In this document: positions 27,396 through 56,376 of the stretch, in pieces
Layout: every line of letters starts with the position of its first letter
Position numbering within the stretch: the first letter of the stretch is position 1
Origin: Gemmatimonadales bacterium
Lineage (GTDB): Bacteria; Gemmatimonadota; Gemmatimonadetes; Gemmatimonadales; GWC2-71-9
Length of the DNA stretch: 64,000 bases
Reading direction: 5' to 3'
Assembly: GCA_035279705.1 (NCBI GenBank)
Contig: DATEHG010000069.1
Location: 6,091-70,090 of the forward strand
The notes under the pieces: model-generated
What the model was told of the DNA's origin: nothing
Databases searched by the model: none
The model's input: the letters and a program-made list of their open reading frames with translations, nothing else
Position numbers and translations under genes: made by a program

Positions 27396-28487
27396 TCAGG
27401 CGGGCTGCGGTTCCCCCTTCACGGTGCGGTAGACGTACGCGGGGAGCTGCTCCGGCACCTGGAGCGCGCCGGTGATGAGATCGTGGCGCGGGGAAAGAGT
27501 GCAGACAGGGTCGGTCGCCGCGGCGTCGCCGGTCAGGGCAAAGGCCTGGCAGCGGCAGCCGCCGAAGTCGGTGTGCTTCCGGGGACAGGAGCGGCAGGGC
27601 TCCTGCATCCACGCGTCGCCTCGGAAGGCATTGAAAATGGGTGATTCCCGCCAGATGGCGCCAAGGCTCTGTTCCCGCACATTGACGAACTGCAGGTGGG
27701 AAATCTGCGTGGCGCCGTGGCACGGCAGCGCCTTGCCGTCCGGCGTGACCAGGATGTAGACCCTGCCCCATCCCGCATAGCAGGCCTTGGGGTAGGTCTC
27801 GTAGTAATCCGGCAGCACGTAGAGAATCTGCATCTGGCCCCGGTACCGCTCGATCGCCGCCGCGGCGATCGGCCGCGACCGCTCGACCTGCTCCCGCGTC
27901 GGCATCAGCGCCGCCCGGTTGGTGAGCGCCCAGCCGTAGTACTGGGTGTTGGCCAGCTCCAGCCGGTCCGCGCCGAACTCGGCGGCCATCGCGATGATCG
28001 CCTCGAGATGATCGAGATTGCCGCGGTGCAGCACTACGTTCACCGAAAAGGCGAGACCCAGTTCCCGCACCAGCGCCGCCGCCTCCCGTTTCTGCTTCAC
28101 CGACCGGATGCCCGCGATCTTCTCGGCATTGGCGGTGTCGGCGTCCTGGAACGAGATCTGGATATGGTCGAGCCCGGCGGTCTTGAGCCGCTCGGCCCGC
28201 GCCCGGGTCAGGCCGAGGCCCGAGGTCACCAGAGTGGTGTACAGCCCCTCGGAGCGGGCGTGCCCGACCAGTTCCTCCAGGTCCTTCCGCACCAGCGGTT
28301 CCCCGCCAGACAGCCCAAGCTGCAGCACACCAAGCTCCCGCGCCTCGGTCAGCACCCGCTTCCACTGCTCGGTGGTGAGTTCGGCCTCGGCGCGGCTCAT
28401 CTCCAGTGGATTGGAGCAGTAGGGACAGTGCAGCGGGCAGCGGTACGTCAGCTCCGCCAGCAGCGTGGTGGGCAGCAGGTCAGCCAC
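27396..28487 (-). CDS. pqqE: PQQ biosynthesis radical SAM/SPASM protein PqqE
   Basis: 363 aa. CPLHCPYCSN radical-SAM cluster motif and a C-terminal SPASM cysteine set (…CRSCPRKHTDFGGCRCQA…). The GTG start overlaps the pqqD stop by 8 nt. Confidence 0.95.
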   Translation of the reverse strand: MADLLPTTLLAELTYRCPLHCPYCSNPLEMSRAEAELTTEQWKRVLTEARELGVLQLGLSGGEPLVRKDLEELVGHARSEGLYTTLVTSGLGLTRARAERLKTAGLDHIQISFQDADTANAEKIAGIRSVKQKREAAALVRELGLAFSVNVVLHRGNLDHLEAIIAMAAEFGADRLELANTQYYGWALTNRAALMPTREQVERSRPIAAAAIERYRGQMQILYVLPDYYETYPKACYAGWGRVYILVTPDGKALPCHGATQISHLQFVNVREQSLGAIWRESPIFNAFRGDAWMQEPCRSCPRKHTDFGGCRCQAFALTGDAAATDPVCTLSPRHDLITGALQVPEQLPAYVYRTVKGEPQPA

Positions 28488-28753
28488 GGCTGGTCACCAG
28501 ATCGCGGCGGGACAGGTCGTTGAGATACTCGATCACGTCGGCCGAGACGTCGGTCCCGTACTGCTCGGCAAGGGTGCCTGAAATTTCGCGCACCGTCCGC
28601 TGCCCGTCGCACAACTCGAGGATCGCGGCGCCCGTGTCGTTGATGAACATCGCGCCCTCCGGATAGAGCAGGACCCGGCGCTGGCGGACCCGGTCGAAGT
28701 CGATCCGCGCCAGGCGCCAGAGGCTGGGCCGTGAATCGGGGCCGATATTCACG
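28480..28753 (-). CDS. pqqD: PQQ biosynthesis peptide chaperone PqqD
   Basis: GTG 28753 overlaps the pqqC stop (GTGA). 91 aa: …RVLLYPEGAMFINDTGAAILELCDGQRTVREISGTLAEQYG…. Confidence 0.85.
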
Positions 28754-29510
28754 CCTGTCCGGGCTCCAGGTAGGCGTGATGAATGTTGTCGATCAGGGCC
28801 CAGAGCATTTCCAGCTTGAACGCGAGTGCCCCGAACGCCTTTCGCTGGCTGTCCACCGTGGTGCAGTGCTGCTGCACGATCGACAGGCCGTGCTTGACGT
28901 CTCTCGGCGCCTGGACCAGCCGGCTCTTGAAGTAGTCCAGCGCTTCCGGCGGGATCCAAGGGTAATGGCGGGGAAAGGCTTCGATGCGCTCGCCGTGGAT
29001 GCGGGGCGCGAACAGTTCGGTGAGTGACGAAGCGCAGGCGGTGACCCAGTCGTTGTTGCGGCAGAAGGTGACGTAGGACTCGCAGATGAGGCGCACTCCA
29101 GGGAGGACGTGGCGCTCGTCCTCCATCTCCTCGCGCGGCACGCCGAGGGCCACACCGAGACGGATCCACAGTTCGATGCCGCCGGTGCCCGGGGCTCTGC
29201 CATCGTGGTCCACGATCCGCTGGATCCACTCCCGGCGCACTTCGGGGTCAGGGCAGTTGCTGAGGATCGCCGCGTCCTTCCGCGGCACGACCCGCTGGTA
29301 GGCGAGGCGGTTGGCGACCCACCCCTGGAACTGGCGCTGGGTGAGTTTGCCTTCGTACATCAGGCGGTGGAATGGATGGCTGACGTAGTACGACCCGCTG
29401 AATGAGCGGAGCGCCGCCTCCAGGGCTTCGGGGGAAAGAGGCCGGTCCAGCGTCGGTATTGGAGGCGCGGGTGGCGCCGCCAGGAGTGAGGCGTTGAGGG
29501 TGGCCGTCAT
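28749..29510 (-). CDS. pqqC: Pyrroloquinoline-quinone synthase PqqC
   Basis: 253 aa with family-typical strings: YYVSHPFHRLMYEGKLTQRQFQGWVANR, ILSNCPDPEVRREWIQRIVDHDG and YFKSRLVQAPRDV. Confidence 0.95.
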   Translation of the reverse strand: MTATLNASLLAAPPAPPIPTLDRPLSPEALEAALRSFSGSYYVSHPFHRLMYEGKLTQRQFQGWVANRLAYQRVVPRKDAAILSNCPDPEVRREWIQRIVDHDGRAPGTGGIELWIRLGVALGVPREEMEDERHVLPGVRLICESYVTFCRNNDWVTACASSLTELFAPRIHGERIEAFPRHYPWIPPEALDYFKSRLVQAPRDVKHGLSIVQQHCTTVDSQRKAFGALAFKLEMLWALIDNIHHAYLEPGQA

Positions 29511-29558
29511 CCGTCGGTTCCGGGAAAGTTGCGCCGGAGCAATGTGGCGCTGGAGGCT

Positions 29559-29594
29559 GAAAATACGAACGGGGCCCGCCAGTCAGCGGGCCCC
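29559..29594 (-). terminator. Strong hairpin plus U-tract immediately after pqqA (attenuator between pqqA and pqqC)
   Basis: Minus strand GGGGCCCGC-UGACUG-GCGGGCCCC followed by GUUCGUAUUUUC. It begins 19 nt after the pqqA stop. Confidence 0.7.
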
Positions 29595-29612
29595 GCTCGG
29601 TGTGGCTTCTGC

Positions 29613-29687
29613 TTAGAGCGTGGCCACGTAGGCGGTGACTTCCATCGTTACCGCGACCACTTCGGCTTCGGGCTTCGTCCAGGTCAT
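29613..29687 (-). CDS. pqqA: PQQ precursor peptide PqqA (24 aa; not listed as its own entry, buried in track ORF 29613..29855)
   Basis: MTWTKPEAEVVAVTMEVTAYVATL carries the conserved E-x-x-x-Y (EVTAY) crosslink motif. GGAGG lies 7 nt upstream of the ATG. Confidence 0.85.
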   Translation of the reverse strand: MTWTKPEAEVVAVTMEVTAYVATL

Positions 29688-29795
29688 CGTGTTGCCTCCG
29701 AGTTGAGCCAGAAAGTTCGGGGAATCCCCGTGGTGTCCATACCAGGGCGGATCTCCCCGGCGAAGCCTGTGGGATGTCCGCAGGCGTATGGCAGG

Positions 29796-29813
29796 ATGCA
29801 CGTCGTGTGCCCG
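29796..29813 (-). promoter_or_regulatory. Candidate sigma-54 (-24/-12) promoter upstream of pqqA
   Basis: The minus strand reads cGGGCAC-ACGAC-GTGCAT, against the consensus TGGCAC-N5-TTGCA(T). GG and GC are at the correct 10-nt spacing. The element is about 110 nt upstream of the pqqA ATG. Confidence 0.6.
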
Positions 29814-29907
29814 GGTGATGACCTCCGGATGGAATTTCAAGCCGTTGCAATACAACAGCTTGAAGTCCAGCCAATCACTCGATAGAAAGCCCGGGGGTGG
29901 GGCAGAT

Positions 29908-29944
29908 GGGTGAAATCACCCAGCGACTGGGTCATCTCACCCAG
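29908..29944. promoter_or_regulatory. Three overlapping palindromes (candidate enhancer/UAS for the adjacent bEBP)
   Basis: GGGTGA-AA-TCACCC (29908..29921), ACCCAG-CGA-CTGGGT (29918..29932) and CTGGGT-CATCTC-ACCCAG (29927..29944). They lie about 100-150 bp upstream of the -24/-12 element and directly after the regulator stop codon. Confidence 0.45.
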
Positions 29945-29947
29945 TGG

Positions 29948-31345
29948 TCAACCCTGCAGCCCGTACTTCTTGAGGCGATAGCGCAGCGTGTCCCGGCTGA
30001 TGCCGAGTCGCTGGGCGGCCCTGGTCTGGTTGCCGGCGGCGTCGCGGAGTGCGCGCTCCAGCATGCTCTTCTCGAGTTCGGCCAGGTCCATCCCCTCGGT
30101 CACCACATCCCACTCCGCCGTGGCCGAGATCCCCGCGGGGGGTGCACCACCAACGGCGGGTCCCGCGGCCGGCATGTTGAGCGAGAGGTGGTCCACCCCG
30201 ACGAGCTCGCCCTGGCTCCAGAGCACCGCGCGCTCGATGACATGGCTGAGTTCGCGCACGTTCCCGGGCCAGGGGTACCGCTTGAGCTGCAACTCGGCGT
30301 CGCTGTCGAGCCGCCGCGCCGGTTTGCCGTACTTGGTGCTGAACTGCCTCAGGTAGTGCTGAGCCAGGGCCAGGACATCATCGCCGCGCTCCCGCAGGGG
30401 CGGCAGGCGCAGCAGGATGACCGCCAGACGGAAATAGAGATCCTTGCGGAACTGCCCGCCCTTCGATTCGTGCTCGATGTCCCGGTTAGTGGCGGCCAGG
30501 ATCCTCACGTCGATCTTGCGGTCCCGGATGCCGCCCACGCGGCGCACGGTCCGCTCCTCGATGGCGCGGAGCAGCTTCCCCTGCAGCGCCAGTTCGAGGT
30601 CGCCGATTTCATCGAGGAAGATGAATCCTCCCTCGGCGGCCTCGAACAGGCCGAGCTTCGACTCCTTGGCGTCGGTAAAGGCGCCGCGCTCGTAGCCGAA
30701 CAGCTCGGCCTCCATCAGGTTGGCGGGAAGGGCGGTGCAGTTGACATCGATGAAGGGCTTCGCGCTGCGGGGCCCTGACGTGTGGATGGTCCGGGCCACC
30801 AGACCCTTCCCGGTGCCCGTTTCACCCGTGATGAGCACGGGTGGCGTTTCCGCCAGGGCGGCCACCTCGCGGGCCCGTTCCAGCACGGCCTTCATGGCCG
30901 GCGAGCTGCCCAGCACGCTGCCGAAGGATTCTTCTTGCGAGGCACGCCGCCGGTAGAACGACAACTCCTGCTTGAGCTGGCTCGTCTCACGGGCCCGGTC
31001 GGCCAGCAGCTTGAGCTCCTCCAGGTCCACCGGCTTCTTGAGATAGTCGAAGGCGCCGAGCTTGACCGCCTCGACCGCGCCTTCGATGGTGCCGAACGCC
31101 GTCATGACCACCACCGGCGTGGCGGCGTCGAACTCCCGGACCCGTTTGAGCAGGTCGATGCCGCTCATGCCCGGCAGCCGCAGGTCGGTGAACACCACGT
31201 CGGGCCGCAGCCGGTCGAGCAGCTCGACGGCTTGCTCCGCGGAGGAGGCGACCTCCGCCTCGTAACCCGAGGCCTCGAGAAAGGCCTTGATGGCCTTGGC
31301 AAGATTTCGCTCGTCGTCGACGACGAGGACGGTCGGGCCACTCAT
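29948..31345 (-). CDS. NtrC-family sigma-54-dependent response regulator (REC-AAA+-Fis HTH)
   Basis: 465 aa. REC (VVDDE…VFTDLRLPGMSG…KKPV), Walker A GETGTGKG, GAFTDA loop (a GAFTGA variant), Walker B FLDEIG, WPGNVREL, and a C-terminal HTH QTRAAQRLGISRDTLRYRLKKYG. Confidence 0.9.
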   Translation of the reverse strand: MSGPTVLVVDDERNLAKAIKAFLEASGYEAEVASSAEQAVELLDRLRPDVVFTDLRLPGMSGIDLLKRVREFDAATPVVVMTAFGTIEGAVEAVKLGAFDYLKKPVDLEELKLLADRARETSQLKQELSFYRRRASQEESFGSVLGSSPAMKAVLERAREVAALAETPPVLITGETGTGKGLVARTIHTSGPRSAKPFIDVNCTALPANLMEAELFGYERGAFTDAKESKLGLFEAAEGGFIFLDEIGDLELALQGKLLRAIEERTVRRVGGIRDRKIDVRILAATNRDIEHESKGGQFRKDLYFRLAVILLRLPPLRERGDDVLALAQHYLRQFSTKYGKPARRLDSDAELQLKRYPWPGNVRELSHVIERAVLWSQGELVGVDHLSLNMPAAGPAVGGAPPAGISATAEWDVVTEGMDLAELEKSMLERALRDAAGNQTRAAQRLGISRDTLRYRLKKYGLQG

Positions 31346-32892
31346 GCGGTTCTCGACTCCAAGGGTTCGGCCTCCGGTGCCGTCGCGGCGGGGAAATACA
31401 GTCGCGCGGTCGTGCCCTGGCCCGGCCGGCTCGACAGTTCGAGGCGGCCGCCATTCTGCTCGACGAAGCGCCTTGCCATCGTGAGCCCGAGTCCGGTGCC
31501 GTCCGGCCGAGTGGTAAAGAACGGGTCGAACACCGACTGCATCACCGATTCGGGAATGCCGGGGCCGCTGTCCGCGATGGCGATGACAACTTCACCTCCG
31601 CCCCCGGGCAGCTCCACCTCGCCGACCGAAACCCGGAGTGTTCCGCCACCTGGCATCGCCCCCAGCGAATTGGCCACGATCTCGGTGATGGCCTGATCGA
31701 GGCGGACGGGATCGACGGCGATCTCGGCGACTCCGTCCGGCAGGTCGATCTCGAGCTTCACCCGGCGCTCGGTAAGCAGCTGAGCCAGCGAGTTCAGCAG
31801 GCTGTGCACCAGAACTCCCGGGCGTTCCCGGAGTGGATGTACCGGCGCCGGACTCGAGAAGGCCAGCAGGTGGGTAATCCGCCGATCCAGCCGGTCCACC
31901 TCGTCGATCATCGAGCGGAGTTGCTCGCCGGCCGCCGGACTTTCCGGGTGCCGGAGCACGAGCTGCGCCGAGGCCCGGAGGCTGGCCAGTGGATTGCGGA
32001 GGCCATGCGCCACTCCAGCTGCCATCTCGCCGATCGAGGCAAGTTTTTCGGACTGCACCAGGCGGGCCTGGGCCTGCTGCAAGTCCGTCAGGCGTGCCTC
32101 GAGTTGCGTGTTCAGGCTCTCGAGGTCCGCCCTCGACCGGCTGAGCCGGTCGGTCATGCCGGCAAAGGCGCGGGCCAGGTCACCGATCTCGTCTCTGGCC
32201 TCGACTCCGACCGGCCGCTCCATCCCTCCCGATCCCGCGGCGGCCATGGCGCCCTGCAGCTCGGTGAGCGGCTGCACCAGGCTGCGGGAAATCATCCAGG
32301 CCGCGAGCGGTCCGAGCACCAGGGTGAGGGTCAGGATCCAGAGCAGCGCCCGACGCTCGCCGTCGACGATCTCCTGGACTCTGGTGAACGCGGTGTGCAG
32401 GCTGTACTCCCGGGCCCGCCGGTAGATCTCGTGATTCACCTCGGTCAGCGCGGGCTGCAGTTTGAACTTGAGTTCCTGTCGCGCCAGCTCGTAGGCCTCG
32501 GCGTTGCGGTGCTTGTCCATGAGGGTGAACACGCTGTCGCCCACTTCCTGGAAATGCTTCTGGATGACCCGCACGCCGTCGGCCAGTCCCTTCTCGTCCG
32601 GCCGCAGTTCGGCCGTCCAGCGGTCAAACCAGTAGTCCACTACCTCGCCATGCGTCTTGAACTCGGCCCGCGCGTTTGGTTCGTGTCCGGAGAGCGCCTG
32701 CCAGAGCACTTCGCCCTGGTTGAACATGGCGGTCTCGACCTCCGCGTAAGTCCGGGTGCGCCCGAGACTCACACCCAGGGCGTCGAGGGCGTGCCGTTCG
32801 AGCGCGTTGCTGCGGATCGCCGCCGCCGCCACCAGGGCCACGGGCAGGGTCATCAGGGCAAAGCCCAGCAGCAGGCGACGGCGGAACGTCAT
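31342..32892 (-). CDS. HAMP-domain sensor histidine kinase
   Basis: I prefer ATG 32892 (MTFRRRLLLGF…), which overlaps the upstream stop (ATGA). Two TM segments flank an approximately 170-aa outer domain, followed by HAMP, the H-box EMAAGVAHGLRNPL and HATPase (…DSGPGIP…GTGLGL…). Its stop overlaps the RR start (ATGA). Confidence 0.9.
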   Translation of the reverse strand: MTFRRRLLLGFALMTLPVALVAAAAIRSNALERHALDALGVSLGRTRTYAEVETAMFNQGEVLWQALSGHEPNARAEFKTHGEVVDYWFDRWTAELRPDEKGLADGVRVIQKHFQEVGDSVFTLMDKHRNAEAYELARQELKFKLQPALTEVNHEIYRRAREYSLHTAFTRVQEIVDGERRALLWILTLTLVLGPLAAWMISRSLVQPLTELQGAMAAAGSGGMERPVGVEARDEIGDLARAFAGMTDRLSRSRADLESLNTQLEARLTDLQQAQARLVQSEKLASIGEMAAGVAHGLRNPLASLRASAQLVLRHPESPAAGEQLRSMIDEVDRLDRRITHLLAFSSPAPVHPLRERPGVLVHSLLNSLAQLLTERRVKLEIDLPDGVAEIAVDPVRLDQAITEIVANSLGAMPGGGTLRVSVGEVELPGGGGEVVIAIADSGPGIPESVMQSVFDPFFTTRPDGTGLGLTMARRFVEQNGGRLELSSRPGQGTTARLYFPAATAPEAEPLESRTA

Positions 32893-34274
32893 GCGCGTCC
32901 GGGGAAGGTGCCGAGCCCGGCATCCTTCCACCAGCGATAGAACGTGGCCCGGCCGATGCCCAGCGTTCGCGCCGCCGCGCTGCGATTGCCACCATGACCG
33001 GCCAGGGCCCGGAGCAGCAGCATCCGCCGCTCGGCCTGACCCGGTTCACCGATCACCAGCGGCACATGGGCCTCGGACTGCCGCACCTCGGCCGGAAAAC
33101 TTTCCGGTCCCAGCTGCGCCGGCCGCGAGATCCGGCCGCGCCGGCGGAGCGCCAGCGCGTGCCGCACGGCGCTCTCGAGCTCACGCACGTTGCCCGGCCA
33201 GCCGTACGCGGTCAGCATCGCGAGGGCCGCCGCGGAAATGGTCACGCCGGAGTCGGCGGCGTGCAGGGCGAGGAAATGCTCGACCAGGCGAGGCAGGTCC
33301 GACAGCCGCTCGCGGAGCGGCGGCACCGCGATCCGCACCACCTTGAGCCGGTAGTAGAGTTCCTCGCGCATCCGTCCGGCCTTCACTTCGCTCTCGAGGG
33401 GGCGGCGCGAGGTGGCGAGCAGGCGCACGTCCACCGCCCGGGGCCGGCTTTCCCCCATGCGGCGGAGCGAGCCGCTCTGCAGGACTTCGATGAGGCGGCT
33501 CTGGGATGCCGCCGGCAGGAGCGCGGGCTCCTCGATCACGAGGGTTCCGTCACGCGCTGCCTCGATCCGCCCGGGCACGCGGCCATGGCCGAACAGCTCC
33601 CCCTCCAGATCTCCATGCTCAAGACTGCCGCAGTTGAACACGATGAGCGGGTGCTGCGCGCGCCCGCTGCCGGCGTGAATCAGCTGGGCCACCAGCTCCT
33701 TGCCGGTGCCCGGCTCGCCTTCGATCACAACGGGGGCATCGCTGGGGGAGACGAGGCCGATGAGATCGTACAGGGCCAGCATCAGCGGATGGGCACCGAT
33801 CAGGTTGCCGAAGCCGCTCCGGCTGCCCACGGCGGTCTGCTGCCGACAGAGCACGGCCAGGTCACGGATGATGACCAGGATGCCGGCGCGCTTCGACTCA
33901 TCCTGCCACGAGGTCACCATGATTTCGGTGGCCCGGCGGTTGCCCTGGGCGCAGAGGACCTCGGTCACCAGTCTGGCGGGAACACCGGTATCGCGTACCC
34001 GCCAGGCATCGCGATTGAGGGCTGGCTCGAGACGCAGCACGTCCCGCCAGTGGCGGCCGATCGCGGTCTCGGGGGAGAGGCCGGTCACCCGGCTCGCGGC
34101 CGGGTTGTGCAGCACCACGAGCCCGTCGGCATCGACCGCGATCGCGCCGTCGTCGGTGGCGCCGATCCAGGCCTGCAGGATTCCGGGGTCCGCCGGCCGT
34201 GGGGCAGACGCGGTCCCGCCGCCCGGCGCGGCAGGATCCCCGGAACCGCCGTGCGACCCTTGCCGCAGCATCAC
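32889..34274 (-). CDS. PAS-AAA+-Fis HTH regulator lacking the GAFTGA sigma-54 contact loop
   Basis: 461 aa. PAS (…DDGAIAVDADGLVVLHNPAASRVTGLS…), Walker A GEPGTGKE, then ELFGH-GRVPGRIEAARDGTLVIEE where canonical bEBPs have ELFGHEKGAFTGA…GGTLFLDEI. WPGNVRELE follows, and the HTH is RSAAARTLGIGRATFYRWW. The start (GTG 34274 or ATG 34271) overlaps the pqqB stop. Confidence 0.85.
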   Translation of the reverse strand: MMLRQGSHGGSGDPAAPGGGTASAPRPADPGILQAWIGATDDGAIAVDADGLVVLHNPAASRVTGLSPETAIGRHWRDVLRLEPALNRDAWRVRDTGVPARLVTEVLCAQGNRRATEIMVTSWQDESKRAGILVIIRDLAVLCRQQTAVGSRSGFGNLIGAHPLMLALYDLIGLVSPSDAPVVIEGEPGTGKELVAQLIHAGSGRAQHPLIVFNCGSLEHGDLEGELFGHGRVPGRIEAARDGTLVIEEPALLPAASQSRLIEVLQSGSLRRMGESRPRAVDVRLLATSRRPLESEVKAGRMREELYYRLKVVRIAVPPLRERLSDLPRLVEHFLALHAADSGVTISAAALAMLTAYGWPGNVRELESAVRHALALRRRGRISRPAQLGPESFPAEVRQSEAHVPLVIGEPGQAERRMLLLRALAGHGGNRSAAARTLGIGRATFYRWWKDAGLGTFPGRA

Positions 34275-40974: not shown

Positions 40975-42291
40975 CTATTGCAGGTCATCCAGGATGCCGA
41001 GCGCCCGGTAGGCACTCAGACGGGCGACACCGAGCGCGACTCGGGCCTGAATCAGAACGTCTCGCGACACCACCACACTTACCTGCGCGTTGCTGGTCTC
41101 GATGCTGCTGGCGATGCCGGCCTTGAACCGCTCGCCGGCCTGGTCCAGTTCCAGCGCTGCCAGGCGCAAACGATCCTGGGCCAGCCCCACCTGCTGCCGC
41201 GCCGCCTGCAGGTCCAGCAGCGCCTGGCGGGTTTCCGTTTCCACCTGGCGCTCGGCGTCATGCAGGCGCAACCGCTGGGCGTCCACCTTGGCATCCTGCT
41301 CGGAGGCGCGGGTCTGCCGCTTGAGTCCGTCGAAGATCGGCACCGACACCTGGACCCCTACGGCGTACGTCCCGCTCAGCCGGTCGAGCGTGTTGCCGCT
41401 CTGGGTGTACTGACCCATGGCGCCGATGCTGGGAAGGTTCTCGTACTTGATGGCCTTGAGGCTTCGCTCGGTGACTTCGAGCCGCTGCTGCTCGGCCATG
41501 ACCTCGGTGCGATGCGCCAGCGCAAAGGCGACGGCACTGTCCGGATCGGACAGCACCGCATCGCCCGACGGCGCCAGCGAATCGGTCAATTCCACGGAGG
41601 CCGACGGCGGGAGGTCGAGCGCCCGGGCCAGTTCGAGCCTGCTCCGGTCCTTCAGGTTGCGGGCGATGACCAGCTGGGTCTTCACCGCGGCAAAGTTCAC
41701 GCTGCTCCGGGTCGAATCGATCGGCGGGCTCACCCCGGTAAGCACCAGCTGGCGGGACTGATCCAGCAGGTCCGCCGCGATCACGCTGTCCGCCAGACGC
41801 GCCGTGACTGCCTCGGCGGAGCCCAGCGCACGGATGTAGGCGATGCCGGCAGTCACGGCGCCCTGCTCACCGGCGGTGCGGGCATCGAGACCGGCGGCCT
41901 TGACCGAGTCCGACGCCGCGTGATTCCGGGCCCAGAGGCTCGCGTTGTAGATCGACTGCGTGGCCTGGACCTGGAAGGACCAGACATCGAACGGGTCGGT
42001 GATGCCCGTGACGCCGGGGAAACCGAACTCGTCGAAGTTGAGCGTCTGGTGCGCCACACGGGCATAGCCCCCGACCGTGGGCAGCAGGTCGCCCCGCTTC
42101 TGGCCCTGGCGGGCCTCGGCGATCTGCACATTGATCTGCGCCAGTTCGGCGCCGATGGCCTGCGTGCGTCCCAGCTTCACGGCCTCGATCAGCGACAGGC
42201 GCGAGGGCGTCAGGCTCGCGACCGGCACCTGCGCGGACAACGGCGCGGCGAGGAGCAGCGCGGAGAGAGCGAACTTCAACGGGCGGTGCAT
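40975..42291 (-). CDS. TolC-family outer membrane efflux protein
   Basis: 438 aa with a signal peptide and the duplicated OEP repeat architecture. Confidence 0.85.
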   Translation of the reverse strand: MHRPLKFALSALLLAAPLSAQVPVASLTPSRLSLIEAVKLGRTQAIGAELAQINVQIAEARQGQKRGDLLPTVGGYARVAHQTLNFDEFGFPGVTGITDPFDVWSFQVQATQSIYNASLWARNHAASDSVKAAGLDARTAGEQGAVTAGIAYIRALGSAEAVTARLADSVIAADLLDQSRQLVLTGVSPPIDSTRSSVNFAAVKTQLVIARNLKDRSRLELARALDLPPSASVELTDSLAPSGDAVLSDPDSAVAFALAHRTEVMAEQQRLEVTERSLKAIKYENLPSIGAMGQYTQSGNTLDRLSGTYAVGVQVSVPIFDGLKRQTRASEQDAKVDAQRLRLHDAERQVETETRQALLDLQAARQQVGLAQDRLRLAALELDQAGERFKAGIASSIETSNAQVSVVVSRDVLIQARVALGVARLSAYRALGILDDLQ

Positions 42292-56006: not shown

Positions 56007-56143
56007 GCCGGAATCCTGACGGGAGTAGGCAAACCCTTCGGGCTTGCAGATTTAGAACGATGCCGCGGAGTGCCATCCGAAGTAAGCGAATCGGGGCCAG
56101 TTCCGCAATGCTAACTCATTGATTCGCTTTCAGTTACCTCCAC

Positions 56144-56159
56144 TGGCACCGCTCTCGCA
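56144..56159 (+). promoter_or_regulatory. Sigma-54-like -24/-12 element upstream of the STAS-REC-ccm genes
   Basis: TGGCAC-CGCTC-TCGCA against TGGCAC-N5-TTGCA, with one mismatch in the -12 box. It lies about 230 nt upstream of the STAS ATG. Confidence 0.4.
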
Positions 56160-56376
56160 CTATACCCTGGCACGGGCCACCTGGCCCACCACAATTGATC
56201 CGCCCGATAGAGCACACCCGGAGTGATCCGGGGCCGCAAAACTAGAGGTCTCTCCAGTTCCAGCGGGGAGATAGCTCGGTGCCGAAGGCGGGATGCACCG
56301 CGAATGCGAGTGAACGTCCCGTTGCGCCTCACGGCGATGAGACCTCGTGTACGCGGAATCGGGCGTGGGAGGATGG

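Follow-up and report, generated by a model that had tools for sequence, protein, structure and literature searches.

In the soil bacterium studied here, a member of the order Gemmatimonadales, the gene of the PQQ precursor peptide, pqqA, is probably activated by a dedicated two-component system that acts through a sigma-54 promoter and an enhancer made up of two palindromes; a predicted leader and an attenuator lie further downstream. As far as can be judged from sequence, the kinase, the regulator, the palindromes, the predicted sigma-54 promoter, pqqA and the terminator constitute a module conserved across the Gemmatimonadota. The analysis started from a GC-rich stretch of DNA of 64 kb (hereafter the window), for which a sigma-54 promoter with upstream sites for a bEBP had been proposed in front of pqqA, and this reading is supported by the presence of the promoter in 30 of 30 intergenic regions, by the positions of the dyads and by the domains of the regulator. 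Periplasmic alcohol, sugar and (lanthanide-dependent) methanol dehydrogenases use PQQ as their cofactor, and the Gemmatimonadota are abundant, poorly cultured soil bacteria; to our knowledge, the regulation of PQQ synthesis has been established for only a few Proteobacteria.

The pqq gene cluster and the adjacent two-component system

The genes concerned all lie on the minus strand and are given below in the order of transcription.

38209-35213, minus: hybrid PAS histidine kinase gene, first in transcription order
35176-34271, minus: pqqB (NCBIfam TIGR02108, above cut-off)
32889-34274, minus: gene of a PAS-AAA+-HTH_8 protein, between pqqB and the HAMP kinase gene
31342..32931, minus: sensor histidine kinase gene (Pfam HAMP, HisKA, HATPase_c)
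29948..31345, minus: NtrC-type response regulator/bEBP gene (Pfam Response_reg, Sigma54_activat, HTH_8)
29950-29948, minus: stop codon TGA of the regulator, followed by a regulator-pqqA intergenic gap of 260 nt
29687-29685, minus: pqqA ATG, 111 nt downstream of the promoter GC
29613..29687, minus: pqqA, 24-aa PQQ precursor MTWTKPEAEVVAVTMEVTAYVATL with an E-X3-Y motif (TIGR02107)
28749-29510, minus: pqqC (NCBIfam TIGR02111, above cut-off)
28480-28752, minus: pqqD (NCBIfam TIGR03859, above cut-off)
27396-28487, minus: pqqE (NCBIfam TIGR02109, above cut-off)
minus, after pqqCDE (29510-27396) in transcription order: MarR-family gene

The proteins PqqA, PqqB, PqqC, PqqD and PqqE form a pqq operon set in which every member clears its NCBIfam equivalog cut-off, PqqA (which carries the E-X3-Y motif) with 21.1 bits against a cut-off of 20. 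Proteins identical to the regulator are encoded on MAG contigs (e.g., GCA_037025665.1), and its homologues are labelled as Gemmatimonadales.

The comparative set was obtained by scanning the regulator protein against one genome per species, which yielded 29 orthologous loci from the Gemmatimonadota (64–78% identity) and 51 paralogous loci of the NtrC family from other phyla. In all 29 orthologous loci pqqA is located directly 3' of the regulator gene and encodes a peptide with the pattern M.WTKPE.E.V.VTMEVTAYVA.., while the kinase gene is found immediately 5' of the regulator gene in 26 of them, the contigs of the remaining three ending at this point. The kinase and the regulator are the only regulatory genes conserved across these loci.

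The kinase is arranged as a transmembrane segment, an extracytoplasmic region, a second transmembrane segment and the HAMP, HisKA and HATPase_c domains, and its stop codon overlaps the start of the regulator gene. Residues 1–218 of the kinase matched no Pfam family and therefore give no hint as to the signal. The regulator consists of a receiver (Response_reg, PF00072, 1.5e-31) with D54 as the phospho-acceptor residue according to the translation, a sigma-54 activation domain (Sigma54_activat, PF00158, 4e-63) and a C-terminal Fis-type HTH (HTH_8, PF02954, 1e-15). Its sigma-54-contact loop reads GAFTDA, as it does in each of its 120 best homologues, and this G5 to D loop variant is that of the functional activator FlgR (Francke et al., PMC3162934, Fig. 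3 legend). Among the same 120 homologues the HTH is near-invariant (NQT[RK]AAQRLGI[ST]RDTLRYRLKK), which fits a conserved DNA target. By its predicted domain content the protein is a genuine sigma-54 enhancer-binding response regulator, and it clears no NCBIfam equivalog cut-off, the top-scoring model being AtoC with 454 bits vs 714.

No RpoN box was found within the 64-kb window, and among the 83 loci L001-L083 the sole match to it lies in an unrelated locus of the Bryobacterales. For Gemmatimonas aurantiaca T-27, the type strain of the phylum, a sigma-54 homologue is listed (PMC3162934, additional file 1), and the entry of this strain carries a count of 12, taken here as the number of enhancer-binding proteins (PMC3162934).

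Other genes of the cluster have a narrower distribution. The PAS-AAA+-HTH_8 protein (32889-34274) has a sigma-54-interaction domain without the GAFTGA loop (ELFGH-GRVPGRIEAA) and reads EE at the position of the regulator's Walker B DE, features suggesting that it probably works independently of sigma-54, as TyrR and DhaR do. It is confined to the sub-lineage of the window, the MarR gene being likewise lineage-specific, and in this sub-lineage pqqB has moved upstream of the regulatory genes, the order elsewhere being kinase-regulator-pqqABCDE.

The predicted sigma-54 promoter

The promoter occupies the following positions in the gap between the regulator gene and pqqA.

29796..29812, minus: predicted sigma-54 promoter (GG-N10-GC; conserved GGCA[CT]-N6-TGC)
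29812-29807, minus: -24 element GGGCAC
29806-29802, minus: spacer ACGAC
29801-29796, minus: -12 element GTGCAT

The original prediction was that the invariant GG and GC are present with the right spacing on the pqqA strand, about 110 nt upstream of the pqqA ATG. The strings are indeed found at 29812-29796, with exactly 10 nt between the GG (29811/29810) and the GC (29799/29798), and the distance from the GC to the start codon amounts to 111 nt.

By itself, this match does not exceed what chance would yield in the window. The site departs from TGGCAC-N5-TTGC at both flanking T positions (two mismatches), and the window contains 20 matches to TGGCAC-N5-TTGCW with at most two mismatches vs 23.8 expected, and two matches to the strict core GGCAC-N6-TGCW vs 1.5 expected. 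With a generic PWM (approximate, built from frequencies that we estimated ourselves) the promoter ranks 7th of 128,000 window positions, and with a PWM derived from the sites of the relatives it ranks 1st, narrowly (11.5 vs 11.4 bits). Single-genome motif statistics (mismatch consensus, strict core and both PWMs) were thus rejected as proof, the site not being separable from background; the significance of the promoter derives from its position, on the pqqA strand and in the gap between the bEBP gene and pqqA, and from its conservation.

The pattern GGCA[CT]-N6-TGC is found in 30 of 30 intergenic regions (the 29 orthologous loci and the window), the chance level determined with dinucleotide-preserving shuffles being 0.41 of 30 with a maximum of three. 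In an ungapped alignment anchored at the GG, information peaks only at GGCAC(g) and at TGC, while the 6-nt spacer, both flanks and the 30 nt upstream are scrambled; conserved GGCAC and TGC separated by a free spacer are the expected footprint of a -24/-12 promoter. The consensus of the relatives is (T/C)GGCAC(G/A)-N4-(C)TGC, its GG being situated 51–127 nt before the pqqA ATG, and this -24/-12 element is the only block upstream of pqqA that is conserved in all 30 orthologous regions.

The chance-level counts obtained from the single sequence are one of the observations favouring the explanation that there is no functional sigma-54 promoter here, pqqA being reached by read-through transcription of the kinase-regulator operon or served by an unrecognised promoter of the sigma-70 type, and GGCAC...TGC being a site for something else, e.g., a GGCA-N7-TGCC operator; another is that about 10 of the 26 distinct sites do read as the symmetric GGCA-N7-TGCC. 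The conserved letters are, however, asymmetric, GGCAC(G/A) being invariant while the base after TGC may be C, T, A or G, and the base before TGC is mostly C where symmetry would need G, which argues against a palindromic operator. In addition, the GG-N10-GC pattern, its spacing and its orientation towards pqqA are kept in 30 of 30 regions, the only known mode of action of the protein encoded by the neighbouring gene requires sigma-54, and a scan of the 260-nt gap for sigma-70-type promoters returned none. We therefore regard this explanation as highly improbable and retain the sigma-54 promoter.

The upstream palindromes

Two putative activating sites are located between the regulator gene and the promoter.

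29907..29922: proximal putative activating site, a perfect palindrome that reads TGGGTGATTTCACCCA on the minus strand, with its centre at about -128
29928..29943: distal putative activating site, palindrome TGGGTGAGATGACCCA (minus strand) with one mismatch, centred at about -150

A repeat search recovered the same 16/17-bp palindrome twice, once at 29907-29922 (TGGGTGAAATCACCCA(G)) and once at 29928-29943 (TGGGTCATCTCACCCA(G)); its consensus is TGGGTGA-NN-TCACCCA, and the distance of 21 bp from start to start corresponds to two helical turns. Two matches with at most one mismatch are present in the 64 kb vs 0.00 in 100 shuffles. Three overlapping dyads had been described at this place, and the strings are present as quoted, but they really represent two palindromes, the middle dyad being a by-product of their adjacency. 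The locations put forward for the dyads hold: the first begins five bases past the TGA of the regulator, and the palindromes lie 95–132 nt before the GG of the promoter. In an enhancer of an NtrC-class regulator one looks for two or more dyad sites some 80–200 bp ahead of the promoter that are co-conserved with the regulator, and the two palindromes agree with this. A palindrome-like match with two mismatches at 41402-41417, inside an outer-membrane efflux gene, and another in L005 at about 833, in what is apparently (though not firmly) coding sequence, both look like chance and were set aside.

The core TGGGT-N6-ACCCA occurs in 27 of the 30 regions, in a total of 45 copies, vs 0.003 in shuffles, and neither the palindrome nor pqqA is found in the 51 paralogous NtrC loci of other phyla (about 0.5 Mb). 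In most orthologous loci the upstream copy starts 123–139 nt before the GG, the sequence between them not being conserved. The spacing of the upstream copies in the relatives is 18–22 bp, so that an argument based on the same helical face is good for the window and not universal. In most orthologues the regulator ends in GGT GGG TGA, which is itself the left half-site TGGGTGA (e.g., L008:6410-6430); in the window the upstream palindrome lies just past the regulator stop, unlike the stop-overlapping site of most orthologues.

Closer relatives are represented by four loci, L084, L085, L086 and L087, whose regulators are 82–83% identical to that of the window. The first three, which are the closest (82% regulator identity) and comprise two distinct sequences, share the gene order of the window; their leader, their promoter and both palindromes (spaced by 21–22 bp, the distal one invariant) are retained, while the stretch that separates palindromes from promoter has diverged. 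In L087 a gene of 226 aa is inserted after the regulator, and the palindromes and promoter still adjoin pqqA with the usual spacing, the palindromes being 740 nt from the regulator stop; as they stay with pqqA, they are part of the pqqA promoter rather than of the 3' terminus of the regulator gene.

The assignment of the palindromes to the regulator is based on their co-occurrence and on the regulator being the sole DNA-binding protein conserved in the locus. It is improbable, though less so than the absence of a functional promoter, that the sigma-54 promoter is real and the palindromes are not the enhancer of the adjacent regulator but sites of another factor (in this lineage one candidate would be the GAFTGA-less PAS-AAA+-HTH protein, 32889-34274) or RNA hairpins, e.g., ones that terminate the regulator mRNA or stabilise its 3' end. 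The first version may draw on the second HTH_8 protein being encoded two genes upstream in the window; however, this PAS protein and MarR are missing from nearly all the orthologous loci, and the palindromes are present there. The second may draw on the ability of the palindromes to form 6-bp RNA hairpins and on the overlap of the left half-site with the last codons and stop of the regulator in most relatives. Yet the outer 5 bp of the palindromes never covary, whereas a neighbouring leader helix shows compensation in five of seven pairs at the same divergence, which points to sequence-specific recognition rather than a mere hairpin. Also against the alternative are the lack of a T-run after the palindromes, the near-constant distance between palindromes and promoter while the sequence between them is free, and the L087 palindromes that remain with pqqA, 740 nt away from the regulator stop. 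We accordingly prefer the palindromes as putative binding sites of the adjacent regulator.

Further elements were noted between the putative enhancer and the promoter.

29836..29864: 12+12 perfect palindrome TTCAAGCYGTTG-N5-CAACRGCTTGAA (about -50 to -78), found only once in the 64 kb
29835-29847: IHF-consensus-like match, overlapping the 12+12 palindrome
29872-29884: IHF-consensus-like match

The 12+12 palindrome forms a 13-bp stem as RNA and is conserved neither in the distant relatives nor in the close ones (82% regulator identity); it could be the terminator of the regulator gene or a recent acquisition. Its interpretation as a site of the PAS-AAA+-HTH protein was rejected, because L084 and L086 keep this protein and do not have the palindrome. 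IHF-like matches occur in 5 of 28 relatives vs 0.8 expected, a weak enrichment without conservation, and a role of IHF at the pqqA promoter is only hinted at by such matches.

Leader, attenuator and proposed mechanism

Downstream of the promoter the following elements are predicted.

29688..29786, minus: predicted 5' leader, about 100 nt between the inferred start and the ATG
29699-29695, minus: Shine-Dalgarno sequence GGAGG at the end of the predicted leader
29556..29599, minus: predicted intrinsic terminator/attenuator, a 15-bp GC-rich stem followed by TATTTT (z = -4.8)

The start near 29786 was deduced from the usual 11–13 nt between the -12 GC and +1. The predicted leader folds with a minimum free energy of -42.9 kcal/mol (z = -2.9) and is about 80% conserved in close relatives, and no Rfam family was matched in the gap or the leader, either of the window or of L008. 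A hairpin equivalent to the one after pqqA is found in 29 of 29 relatives, often with a T-run. The hairpin after pqqA in pqq operons is regarded as a means of keeping pqqA transcripts more abundant than those of the enzymes, and the predicted structure agrees with attenuation at the junction of pqqA and the enzyme genes.

The sequence of events which we consider most plausible is as follows. The membrane kinase would sense an extracytoplasmic signal and phosphorylate D54 of the regulator, as its domains indicate, and regulator dimers would bind the two 16-bp palindromes (at about -150 and -128) through the Fis-type HTH, as suggested by conservation. Activation by looping and ATP hydrolysis is the mechanism of the bEBP family; by analogy with it, the AAA+ ring would loop to the sigma-54 holoenzyme, held in a closed complex on GG (-24) and GC (-12), and ATP together with the GAFTDA loop would open the promoter. 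Transcription would proceed from near 29786 through the structured leader of about 100 nt into pqqA, and the terminator, which is evident as a hairpin, would pass only part of the transcripts into pqqCDE; partial read-through of this kind would leave the precursor peptide in excess over the enzymes.

The leader of the relatives contains further elements. In about 20 of the 29 relatives (L004-L034) an extra TGGGT-N6-ACCCA is present at GG+50 to +52 (e.g., L008:6593-6608), that is, at a fixed position of about +26 to +41 of the transcript, inside the pqqA leader. This extra copy is 175–180 bp (about 17 helical turns) away from the upstream copy, so that the promoter is framed by putative regulator sites. 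Neither the window, in which a decayed remnant is left at 29760-29742, nor its closest relatives have this copy; the lineage of the window has lost it and has two upstream copies instead. The leader of the relatives also has a 5'-proximal helix, GUCGGG...CCCGRC, at GG+29 to +51 (alignment A1, columns 33-55), with compensatory changes in five of seven pairs in addition to G-U wobbles, features that suggest an RNA stem right where the pqqA transcript begins; it matches no Rfam family. The palindrome copy in the leader never covaries and so points to a protein site, while the helix preceding it covaries, as is expected of an RNA stem.

It is conceivable, though on balance we doubt it, that in these relatives the bEBP sites bracket the promoter in a functional sense, the regulator activating transcription once phosphorylated and otherwise forming a loop, a clamp or a roadblock. 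If both flanking sites were true, this would be an unusual case of a promoter bracketed by an enhancer-binding protein, and it would provide a built-in brake on the synthesis of the PQQ precursor under the control of a dedicated kinase (with a substrate, a metal or PQQ itself as the possible ligand). Natural enhancer sites can lie downstream of the start site, as in the FlbD/ftr system of Caulobacter, and the leader copy of the relatives is reminiscent of this arrangement. Unlike the ftr sites, the downstream copy of the relatives is at the fixed position +26 to +41, just past the polymerase footprint, and has an upstream partner at a distance of about 178 bp; the window has no downstream copy.

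The arrangement proposed for pqqA resembles that of NtrB/NtrC and glnAp2 of enteric bacteria in having a two-component kinase and a REC-AAA+-Fis-HTH regulator with the receiver Asp at position 54, and in having a GG-N10-GC promoter with two dyad sites located over 100 bp ahead of it. It differs in the site, which is TGGGTGA-N2-TCACCCA and not the TGCACC-N5-GGTGCA of NtrC, in the target, a cofactor precursor peptide, and in the kinase, a membrane sensor with an extracytoplasmic domain; the regulator also scores below the NtrC equivalog cut-off (413 bits vs 559). The best-scoring characterised relatives are AtoS/AtoC and ZraS/ZraR of E. coli (AtoC 454, AtoS 204 and ZraS 173 bits), which are likewise dedicated systems adjoining a single operon activated from a sigma-54 promoter, although the target pathway and the signal differ, and the scores are so far below the equivalog cut-offs (714 and 646) that the present proteins are not orthologues. 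FlgR, which controls flagellar genes, either has no DNA-binding domain or does not require one; the present regulator, unlike FlgR, has an intact, highly conserved HTH accompanied by conserved palindromes. The GAFTDA variant loop is shared with FlgS/FlgR of Campylobacter and Helicobacter (PMC3162934, Fig. 3 legend).

With known pqq operons (pqqFABCDE of Pseudomonas with AgmR/ErbR, and those of methylotrophs) the cluster of the window shares the first position of pqqA and the hairpin after it. In a review of the ped/pqq genes of Pseudomonas the pqq operon is placed under the LuxR-type regulator AgmR (PMC12997753), and the sole sigma-54 entry in the same review is CbrB, listed as a global regulator whose gene is not part of the cluster (PMC12997753). 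A full-text literature search returned no report of sigma-54, RpoN, NtrC or a bEBP acting at pqqA; publications matching pqq together with sigma-54, RpoN, NtrC or bEBP were discarded, as both terms occurred only in unrelated places. The view that sigma-54 control of the PQQ precursor is not textbook knowledge thus agrees with the searchable literature, in which no such promoter is described.

Judged by its predicted components, the system would extend a classical mechanism to a new target and a new subfamily of regulators; it is assembled from standard parts and is not a new mechanism. With it, an operon for cofactor biosynthesis would join the functions under sigma-54 control, and the system offers a testable module composed of a kinase, a bEBP with a defined 16-bp palindrome, a sigma-54 promoter, a structured leader and an attenuator, whose conservation throughout the phylum would open a direct route to the signal that turns on PQQ production.

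Elsewhere in the window a second good sigma-54-like site, TGGCAC-CGCTC-TCGCA, was noted on the plus strand at 56144-56159, with a perfect match to the IHF consensus (56112-56124) 20 bp upstream of it. A c-di-GMP-I riboswitch (56201-56286, plus) follows this site at a distance of 42 nt, and the genes after the riboswitch encode STAS, receiver-domain, ABC-type ATPase, CcmB-family and cytochrome c assembly (CcmC-type) proteins. A match to the SAM_alpha (SAM-II) riboswitch is located at 504-576 on the minus strand (Rfam, 40.4 bits vs a gathering threshold of 36); this family has been described for the Alphaproteobacteria, and the match in the window belongs to a Gemmatimonadales genome.
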